DNA of 64,000 bases, from positions 4,605 through 68,604 of the forward strand of contig DASSQQ010000042.1 of assembly GCA_035702425.1 (NCBI GenBank), read 5' to 3'. Below, piece by piece: positions 1-57,637 of the stretch. This DNA comes from Gemmatimonadales bacterium (lineage in GTDB: Bacteria > Gemmatimonadota > Gemmatimonadetes > Gemmatimonadales > GWC2-71-9). The position numbers were made by a program, and so were the translations under genes. Each line of letters starts with the position of its first letter. The stretch's first letter is position 1. Below the pieces are notes generated by a model, which saw only the letters and a list, made by a program, of their open reading frames with translations, ran no database searches and had not been told where the DNA came from.

Positions 1-167
1 TCGAGCTCTCCCGAGAGCGCCCGGCGGTTCAGGGACTCGATGTCGGCGAGCTCGTGCACGTAGCGGCGGTCCCCGGTGTCCACGAGCCCCTGCGCCAGGG
101 CCCAGAACATGAAGGCGTCGTCGGCGTCGGGGCTGTGGGCGAGGTGGATGGTGCGGGGCGCGGTCAT
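1..167 (-). CDS. MqnA/MqnD-family menaquinone (futalosine-pathway) biosynthesis protein. N-terminal fragment; the gene continues past the window start
   Basis: Reverse-complement translation from the ATG at 167-165 gives MTAPRTIHLAHSPDADDAFMFWALAQGLVDTGDRRYVHELADIESLN. The SP-x-x-D-x-F-x-F-x-AL and DIE-x-LN motifs are typical of the MqnA/MqnD fold. It is absent from the ORF track because no stop falls inside the window. Confidence 0.45.
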   Translation of the reverse strand, partial: MTAPRTIHLAHSPDADDAFMFWALAQGLVDTGDRRYVHELADIESLNRRALSGEL

Positions 168-247
168 GGGTCGGGGAATCTAACTGGCAGGATCGGCTCC
201 CCGCGCGTAGCGTTCACGGCGATGGAACACCTCCGGAGGGAAGGCGG

Positions 248-517
248 GTGAGCGCGAGCTTCCCGGGTCAGGAGCGCGCCAAGCAGATGGGCGAGCTCCA
301 GCGCGGCGACCAGCGCTGGCAGGTCTACCTCGAAGCCAAGCCCGACGCCGAGCTGGGCGCCGGGGCGGTGCGCGGCCGGGTGCACTTCCTGTCCGGCGAC
401 CAGCATCGGGTGACGGGCTGGATCTTCCTCGAATGGCAGGAGAAGGACATCCGGGACCGCTTCGCCGAATTCTCGGCGGTGGAGCTGTGGCACTTCGTGG
501 AGGCGCTGGAGGGGTAG
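248..517 (+). CDS. hypothetical small protein (89 aa)
   Basis: Complete ORF with strong GC3 bias typical of real genes in this genome. No recognisable family. Confidence 0.4.
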   Translation: MSASFPGQERAKQMGELQRGDQRWQVYLEAKPDAELGAGAVRGRVHFLSGDQHRVTGWIFLEWQEKDIRDRFAEFSAVELWHFVEALEG

Positions 518-796
518 CGGCACCGACGCGGTAGTGTCGCGCCGGATCTGCAGTCGGTGCAGGTTTTCCACATCACTTTTGCAAAATCTGTAGGTCGCAG
601 CGGGGTTCGACGGTCAAATTCGTGCAAATCGTGCACGAAATCATTGACACCAAACTTGCAGGCCATTACCTTCCGCTATGCCTGCCACGATTTCGATTCC
701 GCGAGAGTCCGGCGCCACCAGAGCCCAGCCCGGACTCTCGCTGTTTTTTGGACCGTTCGATCCCACTCCGGCCCCGACCCGAGGAGACGCACGCCA

Positions 797-2263
797 ATGA
801 CCGCCACGCTCGAACCCACCAAAACCACTGCGAGAGCCGCCGCCGGCCCCTCTCCCGCCGACGTGATCCGTCGCGCCAAGGAAGCGGGCGTCCAGGTAGT
901 GGACGTGAAGTTCACCGATCTGCCGGGGACCTGGCAGCACTTTTCGCTCCCGCTGTCGGAGCTGACCGAAGACACGTTCAGCGACGGGCTCGGATTCGAC
1001 GGCTCGTCGATCCGCGGCTTTCAGGCGATCAACGAGAGCGACATGCTGCTGATGCCGGATCCGGCGAGCGCGTTCGTGGATCCCTGTCTCCAGGTGCCCA
1101 CGCTCTCGCTCACCTGCGACATCGTGGATCCCACGACCCTCGAGCCCTACAGCCGCGATCCGCGCTACGTGGCGCGGAAGGCGGAGGAGTTCCTGGTGCG
1201 GAGCGGCGTGGCGACGACGGCGTACTACGGGCCGGAAGCGGAGTTCTACATCTTCAACTCGGTGCGCTTCGACCAGAACGCGCACGAGGGCTACTACCAC
1301 ATCGATTCCGAAGAGGGGATCTGGAACTCGGGGACCAACGGCACGCCGAACCTGGGCCACCGTCCGCGCCACAAGGAGGGCTATTTCCCGGTGCCGCCGG
1401 TAGACCGGCTCCAGGACCTGCGCTCCAAGATCATGCTGGCGCTGATCGCGGCCGGGATCAACGTGGAAGTGCATCACCACGAAGTCGGCACCGCGGGGCA
1501 GACCGAAATCGACATGCGCTTCGGCACCCTGACCCGCATGGCCGACCAGCTGATGATGTACAAGTACATCGTCAAGAACGTCTGCGCCCAGCACGGGTAC
1601 ACGGCGACCTTCATGCCCAAGCCGATGTACGGGGACAACGGTTCCGGCATGCACGTCCACATGAGCCTGTGGAACGGCGACAAGAACCTGTTCTTCGATC
1701 CCAACGGGTACGCGCTGATTTCGGACACGGCGCGCTGGTACATCGGCGGGCTGATCAAGCACGCGGCGGCGGTGCTGGCGTTCGCGGCGCCGACCACCAA
1801 CAGCTACCGCCGGCTGGTGCCGGGCTACGAGGCGCCGATCAACCTCATCTACTCCCAGCGGAACCGCTCGGCGATCTGCCGGATTCCGATGTACTCCAAG
1901 TCCGCGAAGGCGAAGCGGATCGAGTTCCGGGCTCCGGATCCCTCGAGCAACCCGTACCTCACGTTCGCGGCGCTGTTGATGGCGGGCCTGGACGGCGTGA
2001 AGAACCGGATCGAGCCGCCGAAGCCGATGGACGTGGATCTCTACGATCTGGAGCCGGCGGAGCGCAAGCACGTGAAGAACACGCCGGGAAGCCTCCCCGA
2101 GGCGCTGGCGGCGCTCGAGGCGGACCACGCGTTCCTGCTCGAGGGCGGGGTGTTCACGCAGGACCTGATCGACACCTGGCTCGCCTACAAGCGGGCCAAG
2201 GAAGTGGATCCGGTGGCCCTGCGTCCCCATCCGTACGAGTTCTTCCTGTACTATGATGTCTGA
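797..2263 (+). CDS. glnA: glutamine synthetase type I-beta (GlnA), adenylylatable form
   Basis: The internal ATG at 797 of ORF 557..2263 gives a ~488-aa GS. It has the catalytic motifs (GPEAEFYIF, MPKPMYGDNGSGMHVHMSLW, NSYRRLVPGYEAP) and the adenylylation-site motif KPMDVDLYDLEP. The region upstream of 797 has low coding quality. Confidence 0.9.
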   Translation: MTATLEPTKTTARAAAGPSPADVIRRAKEAGVQVVDVKFTDLPGTWQHFSLPLSELTEDTFSDGLGFDGSSIRGFQAINESDMLLMPDPASAFVDPCLQVPTLSLTCDIVDPTTLEPYSRDPRYVARKAEEFLVRSGVATTAYYGPEAEFYIFNSVRFDQNAHEGYYHIDSEEGIWNSGTNGTPNLGHRPRHKEGYFPVPPVDRLQDLRSKIMLALIAAGINVEVHHHEVGTAGQTEIDMRFGTLTRMADQLMMYKYIVKNVCAQHGYTATFMPKPMYGDNGSGMHVHMSLWNGDKNLFFDPNGYALISDTARWYIGGLIKHAAAVLAFAAPTTNSYRRLVPGYEAPINLIYSQRNRSAICRIPMYSKSAKAKRIEFRAPDPSSNPYLTFAALLMAGLDGVKNRIEPPKPMDVDLYDLEPAERKHVKNTPGSLPEALAALEADHAFLLEGGVFTQDLIDTWLAYKRAKEVDPVALRPHPYEFFLYYDV

Positions 2264-2277
2264 GTAAGGCACGGAAC

Positions 2278-2317
2278 GACGGAAGGACGGAAGGCCAACC
2301 CCTTCCGTCTTTCCGTC
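2278..2317. terminator. 17-bp-stem hairpin between the two GS genes (GACGGAAGGACGGAAGG / CCTTCCGTCTTTCCGTC). Candidate terminator or attenuator
   Basis: Near-perfect inverted repeat read directly from the sequence, with one mismatch and a 6-nt loop. No U-run follows. Confidence 0.4.
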
Positions 2318-2356
2318 TTCCGGTCCGTCCTCCAACCGTCACGCCAGACACCTCTT

Positions 2357-3697
2357 ATGCCGACAACCTCCGGCGCCTCCAAGCGCGACCTCCTCGACCT
2401 CGCCAAGAAGCAGGGCGTGGCCTTCCTGCGCCTCCAGTTCACCGACATCCTGGGCGTCAACAAGAACGTCGAGGTGCCCGAGAGCCAGTTCGAGAAGGCG
2501 CTCGAGGGGGACATCATGTTCGACGGGAGCTCGATCGAAGGGTTCGTGCGGATCGAGGAGTCGGACATGGTGCTGAAGCCCGACCTCGCCACCTTCCGGA
2601 TCCTGCCCCACGACGACGAAGGGGGCCGGGTGGCGCGCATCATCTGCGACATCTACAACCCCGACGGCTCAACCTTCGCGGGGTGCACCCGGCAGGCCCT
2701 GAAGCGGCAGATCGCGCAGGCCGAAGCGGCCGGGTTCGAGATGATGGCGGGCGCGGAGGCGGAGTTCTTCATCTTCCAGCTCGACGCCTCGGGCGATCCC
2801 ACCACGGAGACCCACGATCACGGCGGCTACTTCGATCAGACGCCGGTGGACAAGGCCGAGGAGATCCGGCGGCTGATCATCAAGGACCTGGTCTCGATGG
2901 GGTTCGAGGTCGAGGCGGGACATCACGAAGTGGCGCCGGGCCAGCACGAGATCGACTTCCGGTACGCCGCGGCGCTCGAGACCGCGGACAACCTCGCCAC
3001 CTTCCGGTTCATCGTGCGCAACGAGGCGTACCGCCACGGATTCCTCGCCACCTTCATGCCCAAGCCGATCTTCGGGCAGAACGGGTCGGGGATGCACACC
3101 CATCAGTCGCTGTTCAAGAAGGGGGTGAACGCGTTCCACGATCCCAAGGGGCAGTGGGAGCTGTCGGGCGTCGCCCTCTCCTACATCGCGGGACTGCTGG
3201 AGCACGCGCGCGGGTTCTGCGCCGTCACCAATCCCCTGGTGAACAGCTACAAACGGCTGGTGCCGGGGTACGAAGCGCCGGTGAACGTGGCGTGGTCCAT
3301 GCGCAACCGCTCGCCGCTGGTGCGGATTCCCGACCGCCGCGGCTCGGGGACCCGCTGCGAGCTCCGGATGCCGGACCCGTCGGCCAATCCGTACCTCGCG
3401 CTCGCGGTCCAGCTCGCGGCGGGAATGGACGGGGTGGCGAAGAAGCTCGCGCCCCCCGATCCGGTCAACAAGAACATCTTCGAGATGAGCTTCCGGGAGC
3501 GGCGGAAGTACCGCATCGACGAGCTGCCGCGGGACCTGCACGAGGCGCTGGACTGCCTCGAGAAGGACGAAGTCATCCGCGCGGCGCTGGGGGAGCACAT
3601 CTACGAGCGCTTCCTCGAGGCCAAGCGCGGGGAGTGGCAGGAGTACATCGGGAGGGTGAGTGAGTGGGAGCTGGAGCGATACCTGGGACAGTACTGA
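2357..3697 (+). CDS. glutamine synthetase type I-alpha (446 aa, Gram-positive/archaeal type)
   Basis: Full-length GS: DGSSIEGF, GAEAEFFIF, MPKPIFGQNGSGMHTHQSLF, NSYKRLVPGYEAP. It has no adenylylation motif and the length is typical of GSI-alpha. Confidence 0.9.
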   Translation: MPTTSGASKRDLLDLAKKQGVAFLRLQFTDILGVNKNVEVPESQFEKALEGDIMFDGSSIEGFVRIEESDMVLKPDLATFRILPHDDEGGRVARIICDIYNPDGSTFAGCTRQALKRQIAQAEAAGFEMMAGAEAEFFIFQLDASGDPTTETHDHGGYFDQTPVDKAEEIRRLIIKDLVSMGFEVEAGHHEVAPGQHEIDFRYAAALETADNLATFRFIVRNEAYRHGFLATFMPKPIFGQNGSGMHTHQSLFKKGVNAFHDPKGQWELSGVALSYIAGLLEHARGFCAVTNPLVNSYKRLVPGYEAPVNVAWSMRNRSPLVRIPDRRGSGTRCELRMPDPSANPYLALAVQLAAGMDGVAKKLAPPDPVNKNIFEMSFRERRKYRIDELPRDLHEALDCLEKDEVIRAALGEHIYERFLEAKRGEWQEYIGRVSEWELERYLGQY

Positions 3698-3729
3698 GAG
3701 CGTCGAGCGGCGATGCGTCGAGAGGCCAA

Positions 3730-4287
3730 GTGCCGCGACCTCCCCGGCGACCGCGTCTCGGGACGCTTCGCGTCTGGACCTTCGGTCTCCTGACGTTCTG
3801 CCTCGCGTCGACGGCGTGTGACCTGTTGCCCCGTCCCGGCGACACCCGCGGGGTTCAGCAGCAGGCGATCTGGGTGAAGCAGGGACGGCTCACGGTGGAC
3901 ACCGACCGGAAGGTCACCCTGGTGCGCCTGCGCGCCGACTCCACCACCGGCGACCACGACGTGCTCCTCACCCGGTTCGACTTCGCGCCCTCCGGCGCCG
4001 AAGGCGCGGAGTACGCGCTCCGCCTGGGCCTCGACCTGGGACACGCGCGGGAGCTGTCGATCGGCCACGCGTACCGGCTGGGCTCGGAAATTCCCGCCTT
4101 CGGCACCGTGACCTGCTTTTGCCGCCCGCTCCGGCCCGACTCGGTGCGGGGGACGTACGTCCTGCAGCAGCGCGGCGTGGCCCAGCTCACCGGCCGGGTC
4201 GACGCCACGCTCTACTTCACGGCGTGGGATTCCTCCGCCGATCACGTCACCTACCGGCTCCGGCAGTCCATCTTTGGCGTCCGGTAA
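3730..4287 (+). CDS. hypothetical secreted protein
   Basis: High-GC3 ORF. A likely GTG start at 3730 gives the signal peptide VPRPPRRPRLGTLRVWTFGLLTFCLASTA|C. Codon bias is poor upstream of 3730. The start is uncertain. Confidence 0.4.
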   Translation: MPRPPRRPRLGTLRVWTFGLLTFCLASTACDLLPRPGDTRGVQQQAIWVKQGRLTVDTDRKVTLVRLRADSTTGDHDVLLTRFDFAPSGAEGAEYALRLGLDLGHARELSIGHAYRLGSEIPAFGTVTCFCRPLRPDSVRGTYVLQQRGVAQLTGRVDATLYFTAWDSSADHVTYRLRQSIFGVR

Positions 4288-9921: not shown

Positions 9922-9993
<72 letters not shown>

Positions 9994-10001
9994 CTCTTCC
10001 G

Positions 10002-13480: not shown

Positions 13481-13614
13481 AGAAGTCTTCCGGTCGCCTT
13501 CACCTTCATTCCCGCTTCAGCTTCGTACACTCCGCCTCGAATTCCTGATGGTCACCCGCGAGGGCCGGCTCACGTCCGTCGGCCTCGCTCGTCACCAAGC
13601 CCCGGAGGTTCGCG

Positions 13615-14034
13615 GTGGTCCGTTCGCCCCTCGTCGCAGCCGTTCTGGTCCTCGCCGTCGCCGCCTGCGGACCGAGCCAGCCCCGGCCGCCCAAGATGCC
13701 GGCGCTTCCGGGGATGGCGGCGAGTCCGCCGCCCACCATCACCGGCAACGACCCGCGGGCCTACCTCTTCATCGAGAAGGGGTGCCCCACCTGCCACTCG
13801 ATCTCGGCCCTGGGCGTGAAGTCCGGCACCGAAGTCGGGCCCGACCTCGCCAAGGCTTACGAGGACGTGCAGAGCCGGTTCGGCGAGCCGCTGGAGCAGT
13901 TCCTGCCCAACCCCACCGGCACGATGCAGATGGTGCTCTCCCAGCTGATTCACCTGACGCCGGCGGAGCGCGACTCCGTCATCCACATCCTGAAGCGCCT
14001 GCACGACGAACCGCAGGCGGGACACGAGCCATGA
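13615..14034 (+). CDS. mono-haem c-type cytochrome lipoprotein (the cy-c gene of clade II nos clusters)
   Basis: GTG start with GGAGG 6 nt upstream. Signal peptide with lipobox LAVAAC. Single CPTCH haem-binding motif. Confidence 0.7.
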   Translation: MVRSPLVAAVLVLAVAACGPSQPRPPKMPALPGMAASPPPTITGNDPRAYLFIEKGCPTCHSISALGVKSGTEVGPDLAKAYEDVQSRFGEPLEQFLPNPTGTMQMVLSQLIHLTPAERDSVIHILKRLHDEPQAGHEP

Positions 14035-14057
14035 CCTCGAGCAGGGGAGAAACGCAT

Positions 14058-15953
14058 ATGACCGTTCGACACTGGATCGCCCTCGCGAGCGCCGCGCTGG
14101 TCGGCGCGTGCACGCCGTCGCGCGCGCCGTCCTCCGGGCAGAACAGCCAGCTCGCCGACGTCCGCGACGCCGCGATGCGGACCTACGTGGCGCCCGGCAA
14201 GCTCGACGACTACTACCTGTTCTACTCCGGCGGGCACTCCGGCAACGTCTACGTCGCCGGGATTCCGTCGATGCGGCACATCATCACCATCCCGGTCTTC
14301 ACGCCCTATCCCGCCACCGGCTACGGGTTCGACGAGGACTCGAAGGCGATGCTGGGCGGCTACACCTGGGGCGACGTGCATCACCCCGCGCTCTCCAAGA
14401 CCAAGGGTGATTACGACGGCCGCTGGCTCTTCGTGAACGACAACGCGAACAATCGCCTGGCGCGGATCGATCTCCGGGACTTCAAGACCAAGCAGATTCT
14501 GGGTCCGATTCCGAACTCGAGCGGCAACCACGGCTCGGCGTTCCTCACCGAGAACTCGGAGTACGCGCTGGTGGCGAGCCGGTTCTCGATTCCGCTGCCG
14601 CGCGGCACCTACGCCCCGCTCTCCGACTACGCCACCAAGTACCACGGCGTGGTGAGCGGGATCAGGATCGACAGCGCCACCGGCACCATGTCGGTCGGCT
14701 GGCAGATCGTCACTCCACCCTTCGACTGGGACCTCGCGTCCACCGGGCGGGACAGCTCGCGGGACTGGGTGGTCTGGACGTCGTACAACACCGAGCGCGC
14801 CACCGGCCGGCTCGAGGTCGCGGCCAGCCAGCGGGAGCGCGACTACATGATCTTCGTCAACTGGCGTAACGCGACCGCGGCCGCCGCGGCGGGCAAGGGC
14901 CGGATGCTGGACGGGGTGCGGGTGCTCGATCCCCGGGACCTGGCGGGCTCGATTTTCCTCGTGCCCTGCGCCAAGAGCCCGCACGGCGCCGACTTCTCGC
15001 CCGACGGGCGCTACGTGATGTGCAACGGCAAGCTCGCGCCCTACGTGACCGTCTTCGACTTCCAGAAATTCCTCTCCGCGGCCCAGACGCACGACACCGT
15101 GGGCAACGAGGACGGGATTCCGGTGCTGCGCTACGAGTCGGTGCGGGTGGCCGAGGTCCCGGTGGGCCTGGGGCCGCTGCACACCCAGTTCGACGATCAG
15201 GGCTACGCCTACACCTCGCTCTTCGTCGAGTCCGCGGTGGCGAAGTGGAAGGTCGGCCCCTTCGACGGGCACGACTCGTCGCTGGTGGTGGCCAAGATTC
15301 CGGTGCACTACTCGGTGGGCCACCTCGTGGTGGCGGGGGGCGACACCCGGCATCCCTACGGCAAGTACCTGGTCTCGATGAACAAGCTCTCCAAGGGCCA
15401 GCACCTGGACATCGGACCGTCGCAGCCCGAGTCCTCGGAGCTGATCGACATCACCGGCACCGGGATGACGGAGCTGTACGAGGCGTTCACCGAGCCGGAA
15501 CCACACTTCGCGCAGATCGCGGCCGCCTCGCTGCTGCATCCGATCGAGGTCTATCCCAAGGAAGAGAACAAGGACCCCAACGCGATCTGGGCGGCGAGCG
15601 ACGCCAAGGTCACGCGGCGCGGGAACGTGGTGGAAGTGAAGCTCTACGCCATCCGCTCCTACTTCGCGCCCAACGCCATCGAGGTGAATCAGGGCGACTC
15701 GGTGATCATCCACGTCACCAACGCCGAGCAGGAGCGGGACATGCTGCACGGCTTCGGAATCGCGAGCTACAACATCAACCTGGTGCTCGATCCCGGCGAG
15801 ACCAAGACGGTGGCGTTCCGCGCCGGCAAGACGGGCGTCTACCCGTTCTACTGCACCAACTTCTGCTCCGCGATGCACCAGGAAATGCAGGGTTATCTCC
15901 TGGTGAAGCCGCGCGGCGGCGCGGGGGCCGCGGCATCGGGTGGGGGCCGCTGA
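14058..15953 (+). CDS. nosZ: nitrous-oxide reductase NosZ, clade II (Sec/lipoprotein-type signal, no twin-arginine)
   Basis: Beta-propeller CuZ domain plus C-terminal CuA motif YPFYCTNFCSAMHQEMQGY. N-terminus MTVRHWIALASAALVGAC has no RR motif and a lipobox. SD GGGGAGA precedes the ATG at 14058. An in-frame ATG at 14031 is an alternative start. Confidence 0.9.
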   Translation: MTVRHWIALASAALVGACTPSRAPSSGQNSQLADVRDAAMRTYVAPGKLDDYYLFYSGGHSGNVYVAGIPSMRHIITIPVFTPYPATGYGFDEDSKAMLGGYTWGDVHHPALSKTKGDYDGRWLFVNDNANNRLARIDLRDFKTKQILGPIPNSSGNHGSAFLTENSEYALVASRFSIPLPRGTYAPLSDYATKYHGVVSGIRIDSATGTMSVGWQIVTPPFDWDLASTGRDSSRDWVVWTSYNTERATGRLEVAASQRERDYMIFVNWRNATAAAAAGKGRMLDGVRVLDPRDLAGSIFLVPCAKSPHGADFSPDGRYVMCNGKLAPYVTVFDFQKFLSAAQTHDTVGNEDGIPVLRYESVRVAEVPVGLGPLHTQFDDQGYAYTSLFVESAVAKWKVGPFDGHDSSLVVAKIPVHYSVGHLVVAGGDTRHPYGKYLVSMNKLSKGQHLDIGPSQPESSELIDITGTGMTELYEAFTEPEPHFAQIAAASLLHPIEVYPKEENKDPNAIWAASDAKVTRRGNVVEVKLYAIRSYFAPNAIEVNQGDSVIIHVTNAEQERDMLHGFGIASYNINLVLDPGETKTVAFRAGKTGVYPFYCTNFCSAMHQEMQGYLLVKPRGGAGAAASGGGR

Positions 15954-16567
15954 TGCCGGTCACCCGCTGGCTGGAACAGGTGCTCTCTCCCCGGGCGCGG
16001 CTCGCCGTGCTCGGGGCGGGGGCCTGCCTCCTGGTCGCCATCCTGTTCCCGCTCTGGCACATCACCATGTTCGCGAACCAGTTCCCCGAAGGGATCCGGC
16101 TCTCCATCTACAGCTACAAGCTGGTGGGCGGGAAGGACGGCGCGGACCTGCAGGCGATCAACATCCTCAACCACTACATCGGGATGCACGACATCGCCGC
16201 GGCGGATTTCGTGGAGATGCGGTTCATCCCCTTCGCCCTGGGCGCGTTCTTCCTGCTCGCGCTCCGGACCACGGTGTTCGCGCGGGTGCGGGACCTGGTG
16301 GACCTCGCGGTGCTGGTGAGCTACTTCGCCGCGTTTTCCTTCGGCGTCTTCTGGTTCCGGATGTACACCTACGGCCACCACCTGGACCCGGAAGCGCCGA
16401 TCAAGGTGGCGCCGTTCACGCCGCCGCTCCTCGGCCACCAGCACATCGCGAACTTCGACGTCTACTCGACGCCGGGCGCGGGGAGCCTGCTCCTCGGCGT
16501 CGTGGTGCTGATCTTCGCCGCGGTGCTGGCGCTCGAAGCCCGGAAGCACGGCGTGAAGACGCCCTGA
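15953..16567 (+). CDS. nosB: NosB-like polytopic membrane protein (accessory protein specific to clade II nos clusters)
   Basis: 204-aa multi-TM protein. The start overlaps the nosZ stop (TGATG). Confidence 0.6.
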   Translation: MPVTRWLEQVLSPRARLAVLGAGACLLVAILFPLWHITMFANQFPEGIRLSIYSYKLVGGKDGADLQAINILNHYIGMHDIAAADFVEMRFIPFALGAFFLLALRTTVFARVRDLVDLAVLVSYFAAFSFGVFWFRMYTYGHHLDPEAPIKVAPFTPPLLGHQHIANFDVYSTPGAGSLLLGVVVLIFAAVLALEARKHGVKTP

Positions 16568-17844
16568 TGCTGGGGCTCTTCCTCGCTCTCGTCGCCCAGG
16601 ACACGCTCCGGCTCCCGCCCGGCGTCACCCGCGGGCCCCTGGTGCTCGACCGGCCCACGGTGGTGCTGGGCGCGCCCGGTGCCGTGCTCCGGGGCGAGGG
16701 GCGGGGGAGCGTGATCGTGGTCAACGCCCCGCACTGCGTGGTGCGCGGCCTGCGGATCGAAGGGAGCGGCCGCGACCTCGACCAGGACGACGCGGGGGTG
16801 ATGATCCGCGCCGACTCGGTCACCCTCGAGGATCTCGTGATTCGCGACGTGCTCTTCGGGGTCTACCTGTACCAGGTGCGGGGCGCGCGCCTCGCCCGGC
16901 TGGACATCGCGGGCGCGGCGGCGGCGCGGGAGAGCTCGCAGGGGAACGGCATCGAGTTCTACTACTCGCGCGACGTGCGGGTGGACAGCGCGACCATCAC
17001 GGGGGTGCGGGACGGGATGTACTTCGCCTACTCGGACAGCGTCACCGTGTCCGGGAGCGCGGTCCGGGGCGTGCGGTTCGGCCTGCATTTCATGTTCAGC
17101 CACGACGACCGGTTCGCGCGGAACACCTTCACCGACAACGCGGCGGGCGCGGTGCTGATGAACTCGACCGGGGTCCGGGTCGAGGACAACGTGTTCGCGT
17201 GGAACGGGGGCAGCCGCTCCTACGGCCTGGTGCTCCAGACCGCCACGGCGCCCGTCGTCACCGGAAATCTCCTGGTCGGCAACGGCGTGGGCGTGCTGTT
17301 CGACAACGTGATCCGGGGCGCCTTCCGGGGGAACCTGGTCGCGGCGAACTGGCTGGGTCTCGAGCTCTTCAATTCGAGCGAAGGGACGGCGATCACCGGG
17401 AACGCGCTCGCCGGGAACACCTTCGACGCCACCGGGGGCGGTCTCGCGGGCGCCTACACCCTCTGCGAGGGCGGGCGCGGGAACTACTGGGCGCGCGCGG
17501 CGTCCGAGGGCTACGACCTGGACGGCGACGGGGTGCTGGACGCGCCGCACCCCGCGGGCTCGCCCTTCGCGGCGCTGGCCGTGGCGCGGCCGGGACTCCG
17601 GCTCTTTCTCGAGAGTCCCGCGGCGCGCACCCTCGACTGGGCGGAGCGGAGCTTCCCGGTTTTCGATGCCGGGGGAGTGACCGACGGCTGTCCGCTCGCG
17701 CGCCCGCCGGCGACGCCGGCGCTCGATCGCCTGCCGCCGGCGCCCCGGGGCTCGGAGGGTGGCGCCGGCGGTCAGCGCGCGGCGGGAGGGATCGCTCTCG
17801 CACTGGGCGCCGTGGCACTGGCCTTCGCGAGGCGGCGCGGGTGA
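16566..17844 (+). CDS. nosD: NosD, periplasmic right-handed beta-helix copper-processing protein
   Basis: Parallel beta-helix repeats (…GNGIEFYYSRDVRVDSATITGVRDGMYFAYSDSVTVSGSAVRG…). ATGA overlap with nosB. Confidence 0.8.
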
Positions 17845-18599
17845 TCATTTTCGAGCGCGCTGCGCGACGCTACGGCTCCCGCCTGGCGCTCGAGGCGCTC
17901 ACGCTCCGCGTGGCGCCGGGCGAAGTGGTGGCGCTGGTCGGTCCCAACGGGGCCGGGAAGTCCACCACGCTCCGCATCGCGGCCGGCCTGGTGCGCCCGA
18001 CGGAGGGCCGCGCCACCATCGCCGGCTTCGACGTGCAGCGCGATCCCGCCCAGGCCCGCCGGCGGATGGGCTATCTCCCCCAGAAGCTCGGCGTCCCGCT
18101 CTCGACCGGTCTCGCCGATCTGGCGCGCCTCGTGGCGTCGGCGCGCGGGCTTCGGCCCGCGGCGGGGAGCGCGGCGCTCGCCGCCGCCGGCCTGGCGGAC
18201 CGCGCCGATGCGTCGCTCGCCGAACTGTCCGGCGGCCAGCGCCAGCGCGCGATGCTCGCGCTCGCCACCCTGGGCGACGTCGCGGCCCTGCTCCTGGACG
18301 AGCCCACCATCAGTCTCGACTCGGACGGCGCGGAGGAAGTGCGCGCCGCGATCGCCCTCGCGAGCGGGCGCGGGGCGGCCGTGCTCTTCGCCTCGCACCA
18401 TCTGCACGACGTGGCGGTCCTCGCCGACCGCGTGGTGGTGATGGTGGAGGGGCGCGTCGCCGCGGCGGGCACCCTGCCCGAGCTCGCGGCCTCGGTGGGC
18501 GTGTCCTGGACCGCCGACGCGGAGGACCCGCCGATCGAGCGGGTGTATCGGCGTCTGGTGCGCGGCCGGGTCGCGCTGGTGCGGGGAGACGCCGCGTGA
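17841..18599 (+). CDS. nosF: NosF, ABC ATPase
   Basis: Walker A GPNGAGKST, signature LSGGQRQR and Walker B LLLDEPT. The GTG start overlaps the nosD stop. Confidence 0.8.
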   Translation: MIIFERAARRYGSRLALEALTLRVAPGEVVALVGPNGAGKSTTLRIAAGLVRPTEGRATIAGFDVQRDPAQARRRMGYLPQKLGVPLSTGLADLARLVASARGLRPAAGSAALAAAGLADRADASLAELSGGQRQRAMLALATLGDVAALLLDEPTISLDSDGAEEVRAAIALASGRGAAVLFASHHLHDVAVLADRVVVMVEGRVAAAGTLPELAASVGVSWTADAEDPPIERVYRRLVRGRVALVRGDAA

Positions 18600-19408
18600 G
18601 CGCCCCCGCGCTCTGGCGCTTCGAGACCGCCGGGCTCGCGCGGGCGCGGTCGGGACTGCTCTTCGCGCTGGTGTTCGCGACGGCGAGCGTGGCGGTGGCG
18701 CTGGTGGGCCTTTCCGCGGGCGGGGCCGTGGCGGTGCAGGGGTTCGCGCGGACCTCCGTCAGCCTGCTGCAGCTGGTGCTGTGGCTGGTGCCGCTCTTCG
18801 CGCTGATCGCGGGCGCGGTGGCCGGCGCCGACTGTCACGATCTCGAGTTCATCGCCGCGCTCCCCGTCTTCCGCCGCCACATCGTGCTGGCGCGCTGGGC
18901 CGCGTGGGCGGTGGCGCTGGGCGCGGCGCTCGCGGCCGGTCTCGGCGCGGCCGGCGTCGCGATCGGCCTCCTCGCGGGCGCGGCGGACGGCGTGCGCTAC
19001 CTCGCGCTGGTGGGCGTGTCGGAATTGCTCCTCTGCGCCCTGCTCGCCACCGGGATCGCCGCGGGAATCGCCGCGCGGACCCGGGCCCGCGCGCTGGGCG
19101 CCGCCGTCGCGCTCTGGCTCTTCTTCGTGGTGGGCGTGGATCTGATCGCGATGGGGCTCCTCGCCGTGCTGCCCGCCGCGGGCGGGCGGTGGGGCCTCTC
19201 GCTCCTGCTGCTCGCCGATCCCGTGGACTGCGCCCGCGCGCTCGGCCTCGGTCTCTTCCAGGCCGACGTGGTCGCGGGGCCTCTGGGCGCCGCCCTGCAC
19301 CAGGTGCTCGGCGGGTGGGGCGCGGCGCTGCTGGCCGGCGGCCTCGTCCTCTGGACGGTCCTCCCGCTCGCGCTCGCGGCGCGCTGGTTCGCGCGCCGGG
19401 ATCTTTAG
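18596..19408 (+). CDS. nosY: NosY, ABC-2-type permease
   Basis: Six-TM hydrophobic protein. The GTG start overlaps the nosF stop. Confidence 0.75.
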   Translation: MSAPALWRFETAGLARARSGLLFALVFATASVAVALVGLSAGGAVAVQGFARTSVSLLQLVLWLVPLFALIAGAVAGADCHDLEFIAALPVFRRHIVLARWAAWAVALGAALAAGLGAAGVAIGLLAGAADGVRYLALVGVSELLLCALLATGIAAGIAARTRARALGAAVALWLFFVVGVDLIAMGLLAVLPAAGGRWGLSLLLLADPVDCARALGLGLFQADVVAGPLGAALHQVLGGWGAALLAGGLVLWTVLPLALAARWFARRDL

Positions 19409-19430
19409 CCCGAGTTTCCGGGCTCTTTCA
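19407..19430 (+). terminator. candidate intrinsic terminator after nosY (AGCCCG-agtttc-CGGGCT + CTTTCA)
   Basis: Hairpin immediately after the nosY stop, followed by a short U-rich stretch. A second GC hairpin (GCGGCCC-gctg-GGGCCGC) sits at ~19466-19482. Confidence 0.35.
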
Positions 19431-19506
19431 AGCAACCTTCACCCTCGGGTGTGGATGTTTCCCTCGCGGCCCGCTGGGCCGCGACACTGCTTCTTGAGGG
19501 GGACAT

Positions 19507-20427
19507 ATGACTGCCAAACCCGTGATCGCCGGAGTGGACGGCTCGCCCGAATCGGTGCGCGCCGCCGCGCTCGCCTGCCGCCTCGCCGAAGCGCGGGGGG
19601 TGAAGTGCCTGCTGGTCCACGTGGTTCCGGACGTCTGGAGCGCCGCCAGTCTCACCGCGGTGCCCGCGTTCACGCCGGAGTTCGCCGAGGAGATGATCGA
19701 GGCCGCGCGCGCGCGGGTGGTGGGCGCGTTGCGCCGCGCGGTGCCCGCCGGCGCGGTGGAGGACCTGCGGATCCTCACCGGCCGTCCCGCGGCGCAGCTC
19801 GCCGAGTTCGCGCTGGAGCACGGGGCGCAGCTGATCGTGATCGGCGGGAAGCATCACGGGCTCGTCGCCCGGGGCCTGGGGCGAAGCACGGCGCACCACC
19901 TGGTGCGGCGGCTCGACGTCCCGGTGCTGGTGGTGGGCGACCACGCCGGCCCGATCCGCCGGGTGCTGGTGCCGGTGGACCTCTCGCCCGCCGCGGCGCC
20001 CACGCTCGCGGCGGCGGACCGTCTGGCCCGCGAGAACGAAGCGGTGCTTCGCGTCCTCCACGTGGTGGAGCCGATCCCCTTCTTCGACGGGATTCCCATC
20101 ACGGTGGATCAGCAGGACCTGTTCACCTTCTCGGCGCGGGATTTCGAGAAGCAGCTGGCCACGCTCGGGAAGGAGCGGCGTTGCGAGCGAGTGGTGCGGC
20201 GCGGGCCCGCGGCGGACGTGATCACCGAGGAGACGATCACCAGCAAGGCGGACGCGGTGGTGATGGGCTCGCACGGGAAGGGCTGGGTGGACCGGCTGCT
20301 GATCGGCAGTGTGACCGAAACCGTGCTCTCCGCGCTGCCGGCGTCGGTGCTGGTGGTGCCCACGTCCTCGGAAGCGCGGCGGCGTGCCGCGGCACCCAAA
20401 GCGAAGAAAGCGAAGGTGGAGGCATGA
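19507..20427 (+). CDS. tandem-domain universal stress protein (UspA x2)
   Basis: Two Usp domains, each ending in the G-x-2-G-x-9-G(S/T)-like ATP-binding motif (GSHGKGWVDRLLIGSVTE). Confidence 0.85.
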   Translation: MTAKPVIAGVDGSPESVRAAALACRLAEARGVKCLLVHVVPDVWSAASLTAVPAFTPEFAEEMIEAARARVVGALRRAVPAGAVEDLRILTGRPAAQLAEFALEHGAQLIVIGGKHHGLVARGLGRSTAHHLVRRLDVPVLVVGDHAGPIRRVLVPVDLSPAAAPTLAAADRLARENEAVLRVLHVVEPIPFFDGIPITVDQQDLFTFSARDFEKQLATLGKERRCERVVRRGPAADVITEETITSKADAVVMGSHGKGWVDRLLIGSVTETVLSALPASVLVVPTSSEARRRAAAPKAKKAKVEA

Positions 20428-20825
20428 AAGTCGCGGACCTGATGCGCACCGAGCTCAAGACCGTGGCGGCGGACGCCACGGTGGCCGACGCGGTGGACAT
20501 TCTCGCGGAGACCCAGCTCAGCGCCCTGCCGGTGCTGGACCGTTTCGGACGGGCGGTGGGGATCGTCTCCACCCGCGAGATTCTCGCGGCCGAGCACAAA
20601 TGCGGCTCGCCGGAAGCCCGGGAGCGGCTCTTCGAGGAGCGGCTGGTACTCGAGATCATGGCGCCCTGGCCGCCGACGATCGGGCCCGAGGCGGAAGCGC
20701 GGGAAGCGGCGCGGGAGATGCTCTACCTCGACACCCAGCGGCTCTTCGTGGAGGACGACGGGGCGCTGGTGGGCGTGATCTCGCAGACCGACATCGTCAC
20801 CGCGGTGGCGACGGCGAAGCTGTAG
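20424..20825 (+). CDS. CBS-domain pair protein
   Basis: Two CBS motifs. ATGA overlap with the upstream usp gene. Confidence 0.75.
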   Translation: MKVADLMRTELKTVAADATVADAVDILAETQLSALPVLDRFGRAVGIVSTREILAAEHKCGSPEARERLFEERLVLEIMAPWPPTIGPEAEAREAAREMLYLDTQRLFVEDDGALVGVISQTDIVTAVATAKL

Positions 20826-20828
20826 GAA

Positions 20829-21587
20829 TTACCGCAGCGGAATCGTCAGCAGCGCGCGGCCCGGCAGCGCGAGGAGCCGGGGCGCGATCCGCGCCGCCAG
20901 CCCGTGGGCGTGGCCGTGATCCTGGCCCAGCACGATGAGGTCGAGTGCATCCTCTTCCGCGGCCACCAGGATCTCGGTCGCCGGGTCGCCTTGGCGAACC
21001 ACGACGTCGCAGGGCGCAACCGCCGTGTTGCCGCCACGGTCGCCGCCCTCCCAGGCGCTCGCGACCGCGGCCGCCACCTGCTCCGCGTCGTGGCGGGTCC
21101 GGCGCCGCGACCAGCTCATCTCCGGCGCGCCGGGCTCGACGTGCAGGGCCACCGCTTCCGCTCCGTACACCCGGCCCACGGCGAACGCGCCCTGCAGCAC
21201 GTCGCTCGCGTCCGGTGACGCGTCCACCGCCGCGGCGACGAGCCGCGGCCGGTGGGTGCCGGGCGTGACCACGAGGCAGGGCACCCGCGCGCGGCGCAGG
21301 GTGCCGTCGATGGCGGGGCGCAGCGGCCCCGCGTCGTGCCCCAGCACGATGAGGTCGGCGTGCTCCATCTCCGCCCAGCGCGCGATTTCGACCGAGGGCA
21401 CGCCGAACCGGACCGCGTGGCGGTGGCCGGCGAGGGCCTTGGGTTCGGCCTTGTCCCACGGGTCGGAGAGGATGGTGAGCGCGGTGAACCCGCCGCCCGA
21501 GGCGGCCGCGAGCTCGGCACCGGCCTCGAGCGCCGCGAGTCCCCCCGGCGTGTCCCGCACCGCCGCGACGATTTTTTGCAGGCGCAT
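20829..21587 (-). CDS. tandem-domain universal stress protein (UspA x2)
   Basis: Start taken at MRLQKIVAAV. Two Usp domains (…LIVLGHDAGP…, …LIVLGQDHGHAHG…). Confidence 0.8.
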   Translation of the reverse strand: MRLQKIVAAVRDTPGGLAALEAGAELAAASGGGFTALTILSDPWDKAEPKALAGHRHAVRFGVPSVEIARWAEMEHADLIVLGHDAGPLRPAIDGTLRRARVPCLVVTPGTHRPRLVAAAVDASPDASDVLQGAFAVGRVYGAEAVALHVEPGAPEMSWSRRRTRHDAEQVAAAVASAWEGGDRGGNTAVAPCDVVVRQGDPATEILVAAEEDALDLIVLGQDHGHAHGLAARIAPRLLALPGRALLTIPLR

Positions 21588-21695
21588 ATCATCCCCCTTT
21601 TCTGCGCCGGAATGTGCGGGCGGTCTCCTAAAGCGACCTTGAAACCCGGGTGAGAGTAGCCCCTCCCGGGGGCCCGCCATAGCTTCCCACCACCC

Positions 21696-22982
21696 ATGGA
21701 CCCGTCGCGCCCGTCACCCGATCCCCGGCCCGGGAAGGGGTCCGAACCCGCCGAAACGTCACGGGTCCGAGGCCGGTTCGAGCGTCTGGTGCAGGCGGGG
21801 GTGGAGATCTTCTCCCGGGTCTCGCTCACCGAGGTCTTGCAGACGGTGGTGGACACGGCGCGCGAAGTGGTGGGCGCCCGCTACGCCGCGCTGGGCGTGC
21901 TCGACGAGCGGGGCGAGTCGCTCGACGCCTTCGTCACCTCGGGGATGTCGCCGGAGGAGCACGACCGGATCGGCGCGCTCCCCCGCGGCCACGGCCTCCT
22001 GGGACTCGTGATCCGGGAGCAGCGCGCGATCCGCACCCCGGACATCATGAGCCATCCCTCGCGCTCCGGGTTTCCGGCCCACCATCCGCCGATGCACTCC
22101 TTCCTGGGCGTGCCGATCGTCGCCCGCGGGAAAGTCTTCGGGAATCTCTATCTGACCGAGAAGATCGGCGCCGACGCCTTCGACGCCGAGGACGAGGCGA
22201 TCGCGGAGCTGCTCGCCGGACACGCGGCGGTGGCGGTCGAGAACGCGCGGCTCCACGACGCGAGCGGGCGGCTCCTGGAGCAGGTGCAGGGGATGCAGCG
22301 CCAGCGCGATCTCTTCTTCGCGATGATGAACCACGAGCTGCGCAACGCGCTCACCGGCGTGTACGGCTGGGCGGAGCGGCTGGTGCGCGGGAAGTCGCAG
22401 ACGCCGGAGGCGCTGACCCGCGCGGGACGGGAGGTGTTCGAAGCCGCGGAGCGCACCATCACCCTCCTCAACAACTTCCTGGACCTGAGCCGTCTGGACG
22501 CGGGGAAAGTACGGCCGGTGTGGCGCGACGTGGACGTGCGCGCGGTCGCCGAGCGCGCGCTCGCCGGGATGCGTCCCGCCGCGGAGGCGCGCCGGGTCGC
22601 GATCGACGAGCATTACCCGGACCCGCTCCCCGCCCTGAGGACCGATCCGGTCCGCCTGGAGCAGATCCTCGTCAACCTGCTCTCCAACGCGATCCGCCAC
22701 ACCGCGGAGGGGACCAGCGTGATCCTCCGGATCGACCGTGCGGCGTCCGGCATCGCGTTCCGGGTGCGCGATCACGGCCCGGGGGTTCCGCCCGAGCTGC
22801 GCACCCGGGTGTTCGAGCCCTTCGAACGTTTCGATCCGCATTCCGGGATCGGCACCGGGCTGGGGCTCCCGGTGTCGGGGCGTCTGGCCGACGTGCTGGG
22901 GGGCAGTCTGGCCGTGGAGGACGTCGCGGGACCCGGCGCCACCTTCCTCTTGATCCTGCCGGCCGCGCCCACCGAGAAATGA
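21696..22982 (+). CDS. GAF-domain sensor histidine kinase
   Basis: N-terminal GAF domain, then an H-box (MNHELRNALTG), an N-box (LLSNAIRHT) and G-boxes (DHGPGVP, GTGLGL). Confidence 0.8.
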   Translation: MDPSRPSPDPRPGKGSEPAETSRVRGRFERLVQAGVEIFSRVSLTEVLQTVVDTAREVVGARYAALGVLDERGESLDAFVTSGMSPEEHDRIGALPRGHGLLGLVIREQRAIRTPDIMSHPSRSGFPAHHPPMHSFLGVPIVARGKVFGNLYLTEKIGADAFDAEDEAIAELLAGHAAVAVENARLHDASGRLLEQVQGMQRQRDLFFAMMNHELRNALTGVYGWAERLVRGKSQTPEALTRAGREVFEAAERTITLLNNFLDLSRLDAGKVRPVWRDVDVRAVAERALAGMRPAAEARRVAIDEHYPDPLPALRTDPVRLEQILVNLLSNAIRHTAEGTSVILRIDRAASGIAFRVRDHGPGVPPELRTRVFEPFERFDPHSGIGTGLGLPVSGRLADVLGGSLAVEDVAGPGATFLLILPAAPTEK

Positions 22983-23039
22983 AGCATTCTTCATACGGCC
23001 TTTAGAATGCGTTCAGCGCGTGGTTTCTAGTCTATCCCC

Positions 23040-23732
<693 letters not shown>

Positions 23733-24755
23733 GCCGGGCGCTGCACCGCACGCTCGCGGTGCGCTTCGCGCTCACCATGGGTGTGGGACTGAGCGGCGCG
23801 GCCATCGCGCTCTCGATCGACAACGTGCTGCTGCGCCCCTTCCTGCTGGGCTTCATCGTCGTCATCGGGACGTTCGCGACCTTCGTGGGCGCGTGGCGCC
23901 TGGCCCGCTCCGCGGTGCGGCCGGTGGAGGAGATCACGGCCCAGGCGACGCGGATCGAAGCGGGGACCCTGGACCAGCGTCTGGTGGCCGAGTCCGAGAC
24001 CGACGAGTACCGCGGCCTGGTGGCGGTCCTGAACCGGATGCTGGAGCGGATCGACAGCGCTTTTCGCGCGCAGCGGCGCCTCACCGCCTCGGTGAGCCAC
24101 GAATTCCGCACGCCGCTCACCGCGATGCAGGGAGAGATGGAGGTCGCGCTGCGGGCGGAGCGGACCCCGCGCGAGTATCAGCGCGTCCTGCGCAGCGTGC
24201 TCGAGGAAACCGAGCGGCTCTCGCACATGTGCGAGGACCTGCTCTGGCTCACCCGCGCCGAGTCCCGGCTGATCACGGCGCGGCCCGCGCTCACCGACCT
24301 GAACGTGCTGGTGCGGGACCTGGTGGAGCGGTACCACCCGCGGTTCGCGGCCAAGGGCTTCGAGGTCCGCGCCCAGGTCGCCGCCCCGCGCCTCCAGGTG
24401 GACGCCGCCCTGGTCACCAAGCTCCTCGAGGAGCTGCTGGACAACGCTCTCGAACACACGCCGCCCGGCGGCTCCATCGAGGTGGGCGCCGCCGAGGAAC
24501 CGTTCGGCGTGCGGATGTGGGTGGAAGATTCGGGATCGGGGATCGCCCCGGTGGACCTGCCGCACATCTTCGAGCCCTTCTACCGCGCGGACCCCGCGCG
24601 GAGCCGGGGCTCGGGCGCGGGGCTCGGCCTCTCGGTGGCGCTGGCGATCGCCCGGATGCACGGCGGCGGCATCCTGGCGGGGAACGGCGCCGAGGGCGGC
24701 GCCCGGTTCGAAGTCGAGCTGCCCCGTCAGTCCCCGATGCCGGAGGTCGCTCGGC

Positions 24756-26654
<1,899 letters not shown>

Positions 26655-26684: not shown

Positions 26685-27197
26685 ATGACGCCGACGACGC
26701 TGGTGGTGGGGCTGGGCGATCCGGCCCGGGCCGACGACGCGCTGGGCCCGCTCGCGCTCGCCGCGCTCTCCCGCGCGGGACGGACCAACGCCGGAGTCGC
26801 CTGGCTCGACACGCCGGCGCTCACCGCGCGCGACCTCCCGGTGCTGGGCGCGGTGCGCCGGGTCCTGGTGCTCACCACCGTGCACGTCGGCGGCCGGCCG
26901 GGAGCGGTGCACCGGCTTACGTGGCAGGGCGAGGGGCCGGGGCTCGCGCCGCGGCTCCCGCTGCTCCGCGCTCACGGCGTCGAGCTGCTGCGGACCCTTC
27001 ATTATTGGGTGGACCCGCCGCCCGAGCTCGTCCTCCTGGGCGTCGAGACCGGCTCGCCGGCGGAGGATGGACCGCCGCATCCGGCAGTGGGGCGGGCGCT
27101 CCCCGCGCTCGTCGCCGCGGCGATGCATCAGCTGCGCGAGTGGGGACACGAGCTGGCGCTCCATCCCCGCCCTTCGATCCGCTCCACTCTCCCCTGA
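26685..27197 (+). CDS. hydrogenase-maturation-protease-like protein (HycI/HybD peptidase A31 family), orphan
   Basis: LVVGLGDPARADDALGP, a conserved Asp, VLVLTTVHVGGRPGAVHRL and HGVELLRTL match the layout of the HycI/HyaD family. Confidence 0.5.
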   Translation: MTPTTLVVGLGDPARADDALGPLALAALSRAGRTNAGVAWLDTPALTARDLPVLGAVRRVLVLTTVHVGGRPGAVHRLTWQGEGPGLAPRLPLLRAHGVELLRTLHYWVDPPPELVLLGVETGSPAEDGPPHPAVGRALPALVAAAMHQLREWGHELALHPRPSIRSTLP

Positions 27198-39011: not shown

Positions 39012-39584
39012 CTAATGCCTGGTGGTGTCCGGTAGCGTCCTCTCGATCGCGACCCGCAAACTGTCGTACGCCGTCGGATCGATTTCCCGGAACGGCGTCG
39101 CCCGCCAGGCGATCTTCCCGTCCGGTCCCACCACGAAGAGAGTGCGGTTGTCGAGCTTGTACTTGGCGAAGTAGGCGCCGTACGCCTTGCCCACCGCCGA
39201 GCCGGTATCGCTCGCCATCAGGAACGGGAAGTCCGAGTCCCGCATCCAGGACTGCTGGGCCGTATCCACGTCGGCCGAGATTCCGATCAACACCACGTTG
39301 CGTCCACCCTTGAAGACCGGCGCGTACTGATCACGGTACGCGTTCATTTGGATCGTTCACCCACGCGTTCGGGCTTTGAAGTAGAACGCGATCACCACGG
39401 TCTTGCCCCGGAAATCGGAGAGCCGGACCGGGTTCCTGAGGGTGCCGAACCGGGTGGAGCCGGGCAGCGAGAAATCGGGCGCCACCGTTCCGACCGCGAG
39501 CGGCGTCGAGTCGGAGGCCGCCTGCGCGGCGGCCGGACCCGCGGCGAGCGCGAGCGCGGTGGTGAACAACAGAGCTCGGTGCAT
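39012..39584 (-). CDS. Bcp/PrxQ-type peroxiredoxin, secreted, with an in-frame TGA at the peroxidatic-Cys position. Candidate selenoprotein, or alternatively a nonsense pseudogene
   Basis: Track ORFs 39357..39584 and 39012..39347 share one frame and are separated only by the TGA at 39357-39359. The read-through product [37 protein letters not shown] aligns residue-for-residue with E. coli Bcp [35 protein letters not shown], and the TGA sits exactly on Cys45. Confidence 0.6.
39321..39342 (-). ncRNA. SECIS-like mRNA hairpin 14 nt downstream of the in-frame UGA of the peroxiredoxin
   Basis: On the mRNA it reads CGCGUAC-CGUGAUCA-GUACGCG, a perfect 7-bp stem with a GU-containing apical loop. The apex is ~21-25 nt from the UGA, within the bacterial SECIS spacing window. 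Confidence 0.45.
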
Positions 39585-57104: not shown

Positions 57105-57622
57105 CGGGTCGTATCGGGCGCGGTCACCACGCCCGCTTCCACCTCAGCCAGCATCGCGCGCGCCATCGCGGCGGAAGGGTGATCCCGCGGCACCGCGCGC
57201 ACCCCGACCGCCGACAGCGGGTCGGCCTGGGCGTTGAGGCCGCTCCCCGTGCCCCCGGTGCGGAACGGCGAGTAGAGCGCGAAGACCGCCACCCGGGACC
57301 CCCGTCCCAGCGAATCCGACGTCACCTTGAACACGAACCATGTGAGCCGCTCCTCCGGCGGGTAGCGATCCGCCACCGAGGGATCGCGCGAGGCCGGGTC
57401 CCAGCCCCCGCTCTCCACCAGCGCCGAGTCCGCCATCAGCCGCGCGGCGAGTCCGTGCCGGGAGATGACGTCGGCGGCGGTGCCGAGCGCGACCTTGATC
57501 GAGGCGCTGACGAGCGCGGTGGCGAGCGCCGGCTGGCCGCGCAGGGTCTCCAGCGTGGTGTCCGGCGGACGGTGATAGCAGGCGAGGGCGGCCAGCAGGA
57601 CGGAAGTCGTGACCCGGCGCAT
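57101..57622 (-). CDS. lipoprotein of unknown function, tandem paralog 1
   Basis: Lipobox LLAALAC. Shares the VPRDHP…A..A…E motif with the next gene. Confidence 0.45.
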   Translation of the reverse strand: MRRVTTSVLLAALACYHRPPDTTLETLRGQPALATALVSASIKVALGTAADVISRHGLAARLMADSALVESGGWDPASRDPSVADRYPPEERLTWFVFKVTSDSLGRGSRVAVFALYSPFRTGGTGSGLNAQADPLSAVGVRAVPRDHPSAAMARAMLAEVEAGVVTAPDTTR

Positions 57623-57637
57623 CGGAGTCCTCGGCGG

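Follow-up and report, generated by a model that had tools for sequence, protein, structure and literature searches.

A predicted clade II nitrous oxide reduction operon without nosL in a soil Gemmatimonadales bacterium

Clade I nos clusters, organized as nosRZDFYL(X) in Pseudomonas stutzeri and Paracoccus denitrificans, export the nitrous oxide (N2O) reductase NosZ through the twin-arginine translocation (Tat) pathway, draw on NosR and NosX for electrons, and encode a lipoprotein, NosL, that docks to NosDFY; they have neither NosB nor an adjacent cytochrome c. The clade II cluster of Wolinella succinogenes is ordered nosZ-B-D-G-C1-C2-H-F-Y-L and combines a Sec-exported NosZ with NosB, and the phylum Gemmatimonadota has a cultured N2O reducer in Gemmatimonas aurantiaca T-27. 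In Bacillota (Bacillus azotoformans, Geobacillus thermodenitrificans), which are monoderm and have the order nosD-Y-F, a lipoprotein cytochrome c (nosC) stands before nosZ and an open reading frame (ORF) with four transmembrane (TM) helices after it (PMC3475470), and nosL is often missing or has a substitute (10.1101/2024.05.17.594689; PMC13068155). Here we describe a nos cluster in a 64-kb stretch of Gemmatimonadales DNA (the window; contig DASSQQ010000042.1 of assembly GCA_035702425.1, G+C about 70%), where six genes in a row on the forward strand, at 13615-19408, encode a cytochrome c, NosZ, NosB, NosD, NosF and NosY, and where nosL, a usual though not strictly defining gene of clade II clusters, is missing.

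This locus has the NosZ copper ligands and the NosDFY machine in common with clade I, and Sec export of NosZ and the presence of NosB in common with Wolinella; unlike the latter, it has no nosG, nosH, nosC1, nosC2 or nosL, and no cytochrome c domain is fused to its NosZ. It resembles the Bacillota clusters in the genes on either side of nosZ and in the lack of nosL, but nothing like the YtkA-type substitute of Geobacillus is visible in the window. We consider it very probable that the six genes form a functional, translationally coupled operon of a soil Gemmatimonadales bacterium that encodes clade II N2O respiration. An earlier note on this DNA, made from the sequence alone, had matched the gene order to clade II clusters, with a cytochrome c and NosB in place of NosR and NosX, and had proposed a Gemmatimonadetes-type origin; the coordinates, the family matches, Pfam scans, the motifs of NosB and the comparison with relatives sustain each of these points.

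Gene calls were based on reading frames, start contexts and family searches across the window. All six ORFs are intact and of full length, and in comparisons with six relatives the pairwise ratios of nonsynonymous to synonymous substitution rates (dN/dS) are 0.11-0.23 for nosZ and 0.06-0.47 for the other five genes (0.06-0.38 for the cytochrome), values that point to purifying selection on every gene. Reading frames overlap at four consecutive junctions: nosZ/nosB and nosB/nosD at TGATG, nosD/nosF and nosF/nosY at GTGA. The earlier note had likewise counted four overlaps and deduced tight coupling, and both the count and the coupling stand; its ATGA overlap between the cytochrome gene and nosZ is uncertain, however. 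The ATGA overlap is conditional on nosZ starting at ATG 14031, and the start at ATG 14058 appears better supported: it is preceded by the Shine-Dalgarno sequence GGGGAG, it gives an N-terminus, MT.RHW, that is conserved in relatives, and it is used by the JGI and NCBI gene calls on identical contigs. If nosZ starts at 14058, it does not overlap the cytochrome gene.

The organization of the cluster is shared throughout its lineage. A scan of one genome per species yielded 80 related loci, the 30 best of which belong to Gemmatimonadales metagenome-assembled genomes (MAGs) with NosZ proteins 75-87% identical to that of the window. By tblastn, these Gemmatimonadales loci, about 25 or more in number, have the order cytochrome c, nosZ, nosB, nosD, nosF, nosY, often followed by genes for universal stress proteins (Usp). 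Contigs that are 99.85% identical to the window from position 9952 onward are present in JGI 3300006804, in ENA ERZ27253162 and in a soil MAG, NCBI GCA_035646115.1.

The assignment of NosZ to clade II, already made in the earlier note, is borne out by its match to the NCBIfam model TIGR04246, 'Sec-dependent nitrous-oxide reductase' (823.8 bits; cut-off 625), with 452.8 bits against the Tat-dependent model TIGR04244, below its cut-off of 625, and 170 bits against a clade III L-NosZ model whose cut-off is 700. Pfam recognizes a nos_propeller and a cupredoxin domain, and alignment to the solved NosZ 9f8x shows that the seven His ligands of the copper centre CuZ (in HH, NHG, PHG, LHT, GH and PH) and the H/C/C/H/M ligands of CuA (in HGF and CxxFCxxxHxEM) have been kept. 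The N-terminus, MTVRHWIALASAALVGAC and then TPS, fits a lipobox rule of the PROSITE PS51257 type (a charged n-region and a hydrophobic h-region, then [LVI][ASTVI][GAS]C between residues 15 and 35), with the break in LVGA/C before Cys18. It contains a single Arg and, from either candidate start, no twin arginine is found up to 60 residues from the hydrophobic region, so that the Sec-type signal with a lipobox described in the earlier note is retained and the Tat motif that it had thought a corrected start might uncover is absent. NosZ is accordingly predicted to be a Sec-exported lipoprotein. The lipobox is not special to the window, in that 67 of 81 NosZ N-termini (the 80 related loci and the window) pass the rule, across phyla; of those that fail, three are truncated and several more nonetheless have a Cys downstream of the hydrophobic region. 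The NosZ proteins of loci L011, L016, L022, L023 and L030 have a very short n-region, M.RRF(L/A), which superficially resembles the Tat motif RRxFL and is followed by a lipobox; the NosZ of the window has no such motif.

The putative cytochrome, which begins with GTG and has a GGAGG Shine-Dalgarno sequence 6 nt upstream (13604-13608), contains a single CPTCH haem motif and a PTGTM motif, both present in all orthologues, but it scores only 19.3 bits against Pfam Cytochrom_C, below the cut-off of 21.3. The lipobox (LAVAAC, at the end of the N-terminal signal and in agreement with the PS51257-like rule), the haem motif and the place upstream of nosZ are kept in all Gemmatimonadales loci, which extends to the whole group the lipobox that had been noted for this protein earlier. 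We infer that it serves as the electron donor to CuA of NosZ.

NosB has no match in Pfam, NCBIfam or the PDB, but it contains both published NosB motifs, LNHYIGM and YGH (PMC9697520), and residues H74, M78 and H142 are 98-100% conserved among 45 orthologues. An AlphaFold (AF2) model of moderate confidence (pLDDT 70.8) has four helices in the membrane and a small sheet on the periplasmic side, for which a fold search returned generic four-helix or claudin-like matches only. NosB is essential in Wolinella, according to work cited in PMC9697520. Two NosB queries recovered 712 and 344 homologues, the larger number with the query from the window's lineage; the search from a Gemmatimonadaceae locus, aimed at the cluster of G. 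aurantiaca T-27, returned no named Gemmatimonas entry. Many homologues of about 200 residues carry the JGI label 'copper chaperone NosL' (P0014, P0024, P0025, P0035, P0038, P0132, P0137 and others), and the NosL model described below finds a NosL domain in none of 120 NosB homologues from the first search. The label probably results from annotation transfer from NosB-NosL fusions, and NosB proteins mislabelled in this way could inflate nosL counts in metagenome surveys. In clusters of the Longimicrobiales type (L062, 12084-13136; P0165, P0192), a lipoprotein of about 150 residues with four conserved Cys is encoded between nosB and nosD, and some contigs have it and NosB called as a single ORF; the protein does not resemble NosL and is absent from the window.

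The remaining three genes encode the NosDFY maturation machine. NosD matches TIGR04247 (326.5 bits; cut-off 300) as well as Pfam NosD, has a homologue in the P. stutzeri NosD of the NosDFY structure 7o0y (E 5e-42), and has three residues, H174, M176 and M198, that are invariant among 63 orthologues. The position of nosF is constant in all loci, and nosY abuts it without space for nosL, as it does in 25 of 27 Gemmatimonadota loci. Coordinates of the operon and of the features around it are given in Table 1.

Table 1. Features of the nos operon and its surroundings in the window.
Feature	Position	Strand	Basis and remarks
Intergenic leader upstream of the operon, 134 nt	13481..13614	+	Sequence reading
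Monohaem c-type cytochrome (NosC-like), predicted lipoprotein, 139 residues	13615..14034	+	CPTCH, PTGTM, lipobox
nosZ, clade II (Sec-dependent) nitrous oxide reductase	14058..15953	+	TIGR04246, nos_propeller and cupredoxin domains, ligands, lipobox; alternative start 14031
nosB, 4-TM membrane protein typical of clade II clusters	15953..16567	+	LNHYIGM and YGH motifs, AlphaFold model
nosD, periplasmic beta-helix maturation protein with C-terminal hydrophobic tail	16567..17844	+	TIGR04247, Pfam NosD
nosF, ABC ATPase of the NosDFY machine	17841..18599	+	Pfam ABC_tran, 94 bits; GTGA overlap at both ends
nosY, ABC-2 type permease of the NosDFY machine	18596..19408	+	Pfam ABC2_membrane_2, 47 bits
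Two hairpins after nosY	19407-19424 (then CUUUC); 19466-19482	+	Fold -47.5 kcal/mol, z = -3.0
Tandem Usp	19507-20427	+	
CBS pair	20424-20825	+	
Usp	20829-21680	-	
GAF histidine kinase	21696-22982	+	
OmpR-type regulator	23040-23732	+	Best NCBIfam match of heavy-metal CopR/CzcR type, below cut-off
HAMP histidine kinase	23729-24784	+	CopS/CzcS-like, below cut-off

Several points weigh against the interpretation of these genes as a working N2O-respiring operon whose copper supply is independent of NosL. The activity of the operon is predicted from its genes, the type of signal peptide on NosZ was set by a pattern rule, and the model of NosB is of only moderate confidence. No promoter or regulator sites were found upstream of the operon: a scan of the leader returned no sigma-70-like site, 28 upstream regions contain neither an FNR nor a CRP box when 2 mismatches are allowed, and no leader 12-mers are common to 27 relatives beyond the coding signal peptide. 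In addition, nosL or a chaperone of similar function may be encoded at a distance, beyond the 64 kb.

To search for nosL we built a hidden Markov model (HMM) from 28 clade II NosL proteins of related loci, all of which have the CxxCxM motif of clade II NosL (PMC6530538). It has no match in the six-frame translation of the window, so that nosL is not to be found just outside the cluster, where the earlier note had allowed that it might be encoded; and among the roughly 60 genes called in the window, Pfam scans found no NosL (PF05573), NosR, ApbE/NosX, Sco, PCuAC or YtkA protein. When the HMM was applied to the loci holding both nosF and nosY, including 10 kb on either side of each cluster, nosL proved to be absent from 25 and present in two (L024 and L063) of those from Gemmatimonadota, and absent from two and present in 24 of those from other phyla. 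Both the lipoprotein-type NosZ and the nosL-less cluster, which the earlier note had implied to be unusual, are thus the rule in this lineage. The same note was right about the absence of nosL but had expected the gene after nosY; in Acidobacteriota, Bacteroidota and other phyla, unlike clade I, a NosL lipoprotein of about 140 residues is encoded between nosF and nosY. In L024 nosL is still present, while in its close relative L027 nosF runs almost straight into nosY, which indicates that nosL was removed by a clean deletion between the two genes, an event that has probably happened more than once.

Comparison with the nos clusters of other groups places this loss in context. Other Gemmatimonadota clusters (L002-L030, and the Gemmatimonadaceae-type L085) resemble that of the window in having a Sec-type NosZ followed by nosB-nosD-nosF-nosY, with usp genes alongside and no nosR. 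The Gemmatimonadaceae-type clusters (L085 and L086) differ from it in that a gene for a 150-residue cupredoxin (PF00127) replaces the cytochrome c gene upstream of nosZ, and they lack nosL too; around them lie NirK-like genes, usp genes and genes for GAF and PAS kinases. Clusters from Acidobacteriota, Bacteroidota and Ignavibacteriota (L031-L080) have a lipobox-type NosZ, an upstream cytochrome c, and nosB and nosDFY arranged as in the window, but unlike it they hold a nosL of the CxxCxM type between nosF and nosY (24 of 26), their cytochrome often makes up the C-terminal domain of a longer protein, and in Bacteroidota an extra 268-residue membrane protein is encoded between nosB and nosD.

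The following sequence of events would account for the gene content of the operon. Sec would export unfolded apo-NosZ, which Lsp and Lgt would process, with lipidation on Cys18 leaving the enzyme tethered to the membrane and facing the periplasm. There NosDFY, with its ABC ATPase, permease and periplasmic beta-helix protein, would build CuZ, and the lipoprotein monohaem cytochrome c would pass electrons to CuA, with NosB, whose four TM helices are accompanied by invariant periplasmic His and Met residues, acting as a required membrane partner. Because the lineage has lost nosL, the Cu(I) for NosD and NosZ would have to come from a source other than a NosL of the operon, either from ambient periplasmic copper or through a chaperone encoded elsewhere. 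The flanking Usp, CBS and GAF-kinase genes may place expression within a low-oxygen or stress response.

That copper can be supplied without NosL is made plausible by three precedents: NosL of Paracoccus is essential only or mainly under copper limitation (PMC6530538), Methylocystis strains that have lost nosL still respire N2O (PMC11102522), and Geobacillus has a YtkA-domain protein in its place (PMC13068155). Tentatively, and with somewhat less than even confidence, we propose that Gemmatimonadota assemble both copper centres of NosZ without any NosL-type chaperone in the genome, and that independence from NosL is the norm in this phylum. A route for copper that is free of NosL could involve NosB, the anchoring of NosZ to the membrane, or some metal-handling system close by.

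A different possibility, which we regard as credible but on the doubtful side, is that the operon is served in trans by nosL or by a non-homologous chaperone of the YtkA, PCuAC or Sco type from another part of the genome. The visible part of the genome amounts to 64 kb, two Gemmatimonadota loci (L024 and L063) retain nosL, and, beyond the replacement of NosL by a YtkA-domain protein in Geobacillus (PMC13068155), other chaperones are presumed to serve methanotrophs that lack the gene (PMC11102522). However, there is no chaperone gene of this kind in the window, nor within 10 kb of 25 related clusters. The MAG GCA_035646115.1 contains a second nos cluster (L084; DASRPZ010000214.1, 5179-15592) that is ordered cytochrome c-nosZ-B-D-F-Y and again has no nosL; it is either a paralogous cluster or the product of a bin mixing two populations. 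A database search with the Gemmatimonadales NosL of L024 recovered 10 proteins, none from the MAG of the window, as compared with 712 NosB homologues, although a search of this kind reaches close relatives only. The L084 cluster is followed by genes for a 333-residue two-domain NirK-like copper protein, two small membrane proteins and a TonB-dependent receptor.

It is unlikely that a protein of the operon itself, most plausibly NosB, has taken over the delivery of copper from NosL. In favor of such a role are the invariant periplasmic His and Met residues of NosB (H74, M78 and H142), the fusion of NosB to NosL in some Bacteroidota (PMC9697520), and additional His and Met residues in Gemmatimonadales NosB (M89, H162 and H164). 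But H74, M78 and H142 are just as conserved in clusters that contain nosL, and the generic matches of the NosB fold give the idea no help. Residues that might have compensated for the loss of nosL (M89, H162 and H164 in NosB; H179, C300 and C375 in NosD) are specific to Gemmatimonadales, but they are found in L024 as well, which keeps nosL: the presence there of M89 and H162 implies that these positions track phylogeny rather than the loss of nosL, and H179, C300 and C375 of NosD are there likewise. A further candidate, C80 of NosY, was rejected as lying on the cytoplasmic side.

Very improbable is the view that the cluster is decaying and that the loss of nosL was the first step toward a non-functional relic. 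It would explain why an accessory gene that is usually seen as conserved in both clades (10.1101/2024.06.05.597523) is missing; yet full-length ORFs and dN/dS values well below 1 for every gene argue against decay, the metal ligands are conserved, and the architecture has been kept in 25 independent MAG loci. So remote that it can be set aside is a mis-assigned nosZ start that conceals a Tat-exported, clade I-like enzyme: the open frame does run upstream to 13548 and includes an RRRR run, but this extension covers all of the cytochrome gene, in a different frame, and is separated from the hydrophobic region by about 130 residues. The start is put at 14058 or 14031 by codon scoring, by the Shine-Dalgarno sequence, by conservation and by public gene calls, and the score against the Tat-type model stays under its cut-off.

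Downstream of nosY, the two hairpins listed in Table 1 are the probable end of the operon, although a strict terminator scan misses them. They are followed directly by the first usp gene, an arrangement read correctly in the earlier note, as the fold statistics and the Pfam and NCBIfam matches indicate. The neighbourhood that begins with this gene (19507-26654) is closed by a P1B-type ATPase of 596 residues that has a TPCP motif and lacks an N-terminal metal-binding domain. From Usp to the ATPase, many Gemmatimonadales loci preserve it in synteny with the nos cluster, with the OmpR-type regulator 85-89% identical across them, and it is not part of the operon. Judged from gene content, such an association hints at stress, low-oxygen or metal control of nos. 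Directly after the ATPase, a 170-residue protein of the hydrogenase maturation protease superfamily (TIGR00072, 54 bits) is encoded at 26685-27197 on the forward strand, and there are no hydrogenase genes near it.

Several further observations concern other parts of the window, in which an Rfam scan detected tRNA only. An intact tRNA-Cys gene lies at 9922-9994 on the forward strand, and three public contigs (L081-L083) match the window only to the right of 9952, in the 3' part of this gene; in their positions 1-4000 they have a phage-type integrase and a helix-turn-helix gene where the window has phosphofructokinase (PFK) and ankyrin genes. The difference suggests that, in sister strains, an integrative element has entered at tRNA-Cys, immediately upstream of the SulP/beta-CASP/nos region. 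On the reverse strand, a peroxiredoxin of the AhpC/TSA family (39012-39569) has an in-frame TGA (39357-39359) at the position expected for its peroxidatic Cys, and about 14 nt downstream there is a 7-bp hairpin with an 8-nt loop; the TGA is a candidate selenocysteine codon with an element resembling a selenocysteine insertion sequence (SECIS), although the 63-nt fold is no better than that of shuffled sequences (z = -0.35). Two tandem glutamine synthetase genes (488 and 446 residues) occupy 797-3697 on the forward strand, and three consecutive small predicted lipoproteins (173, 156 and 145 residues) with no Pfam match are encoded at 57101-58542 on the reverse strand.

Clade II nos clusters are already known from Gemmatimonadota, and clusters without nosL have been described in other groups, including N2O-respiring Methylocystis (PMC11102522) and Bacillota (bioRxiv 10.1101/2024.05.17.594689). 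On the other hand, nosL has been treated as conserved in both clades (10.1101/2024.06.05.597523; PMC8692524), and we found no explicit statement in the searchable literature that Gemmatimonadota are generally without it. Its apparent absence at the level of the phylum would be the one point that is mildly new. Nonetheless, since nosL is absent from 25 of 27 clusters in Gemmatimonadota and present in 24 of 26 in other phyla, it is not a universal marker of a complete nos system, and Gemmatimonadota offer natural test cases for the assembly of CuZ independently of NosL.

Gemmatimonadota contribute a large share of the clade II nosZ genes in soil and are abundant consumers of N2O there. Given this share, the way in which their NosZ matures bears on when soils are sinks for N2O, as under copper limitation or at low pH.

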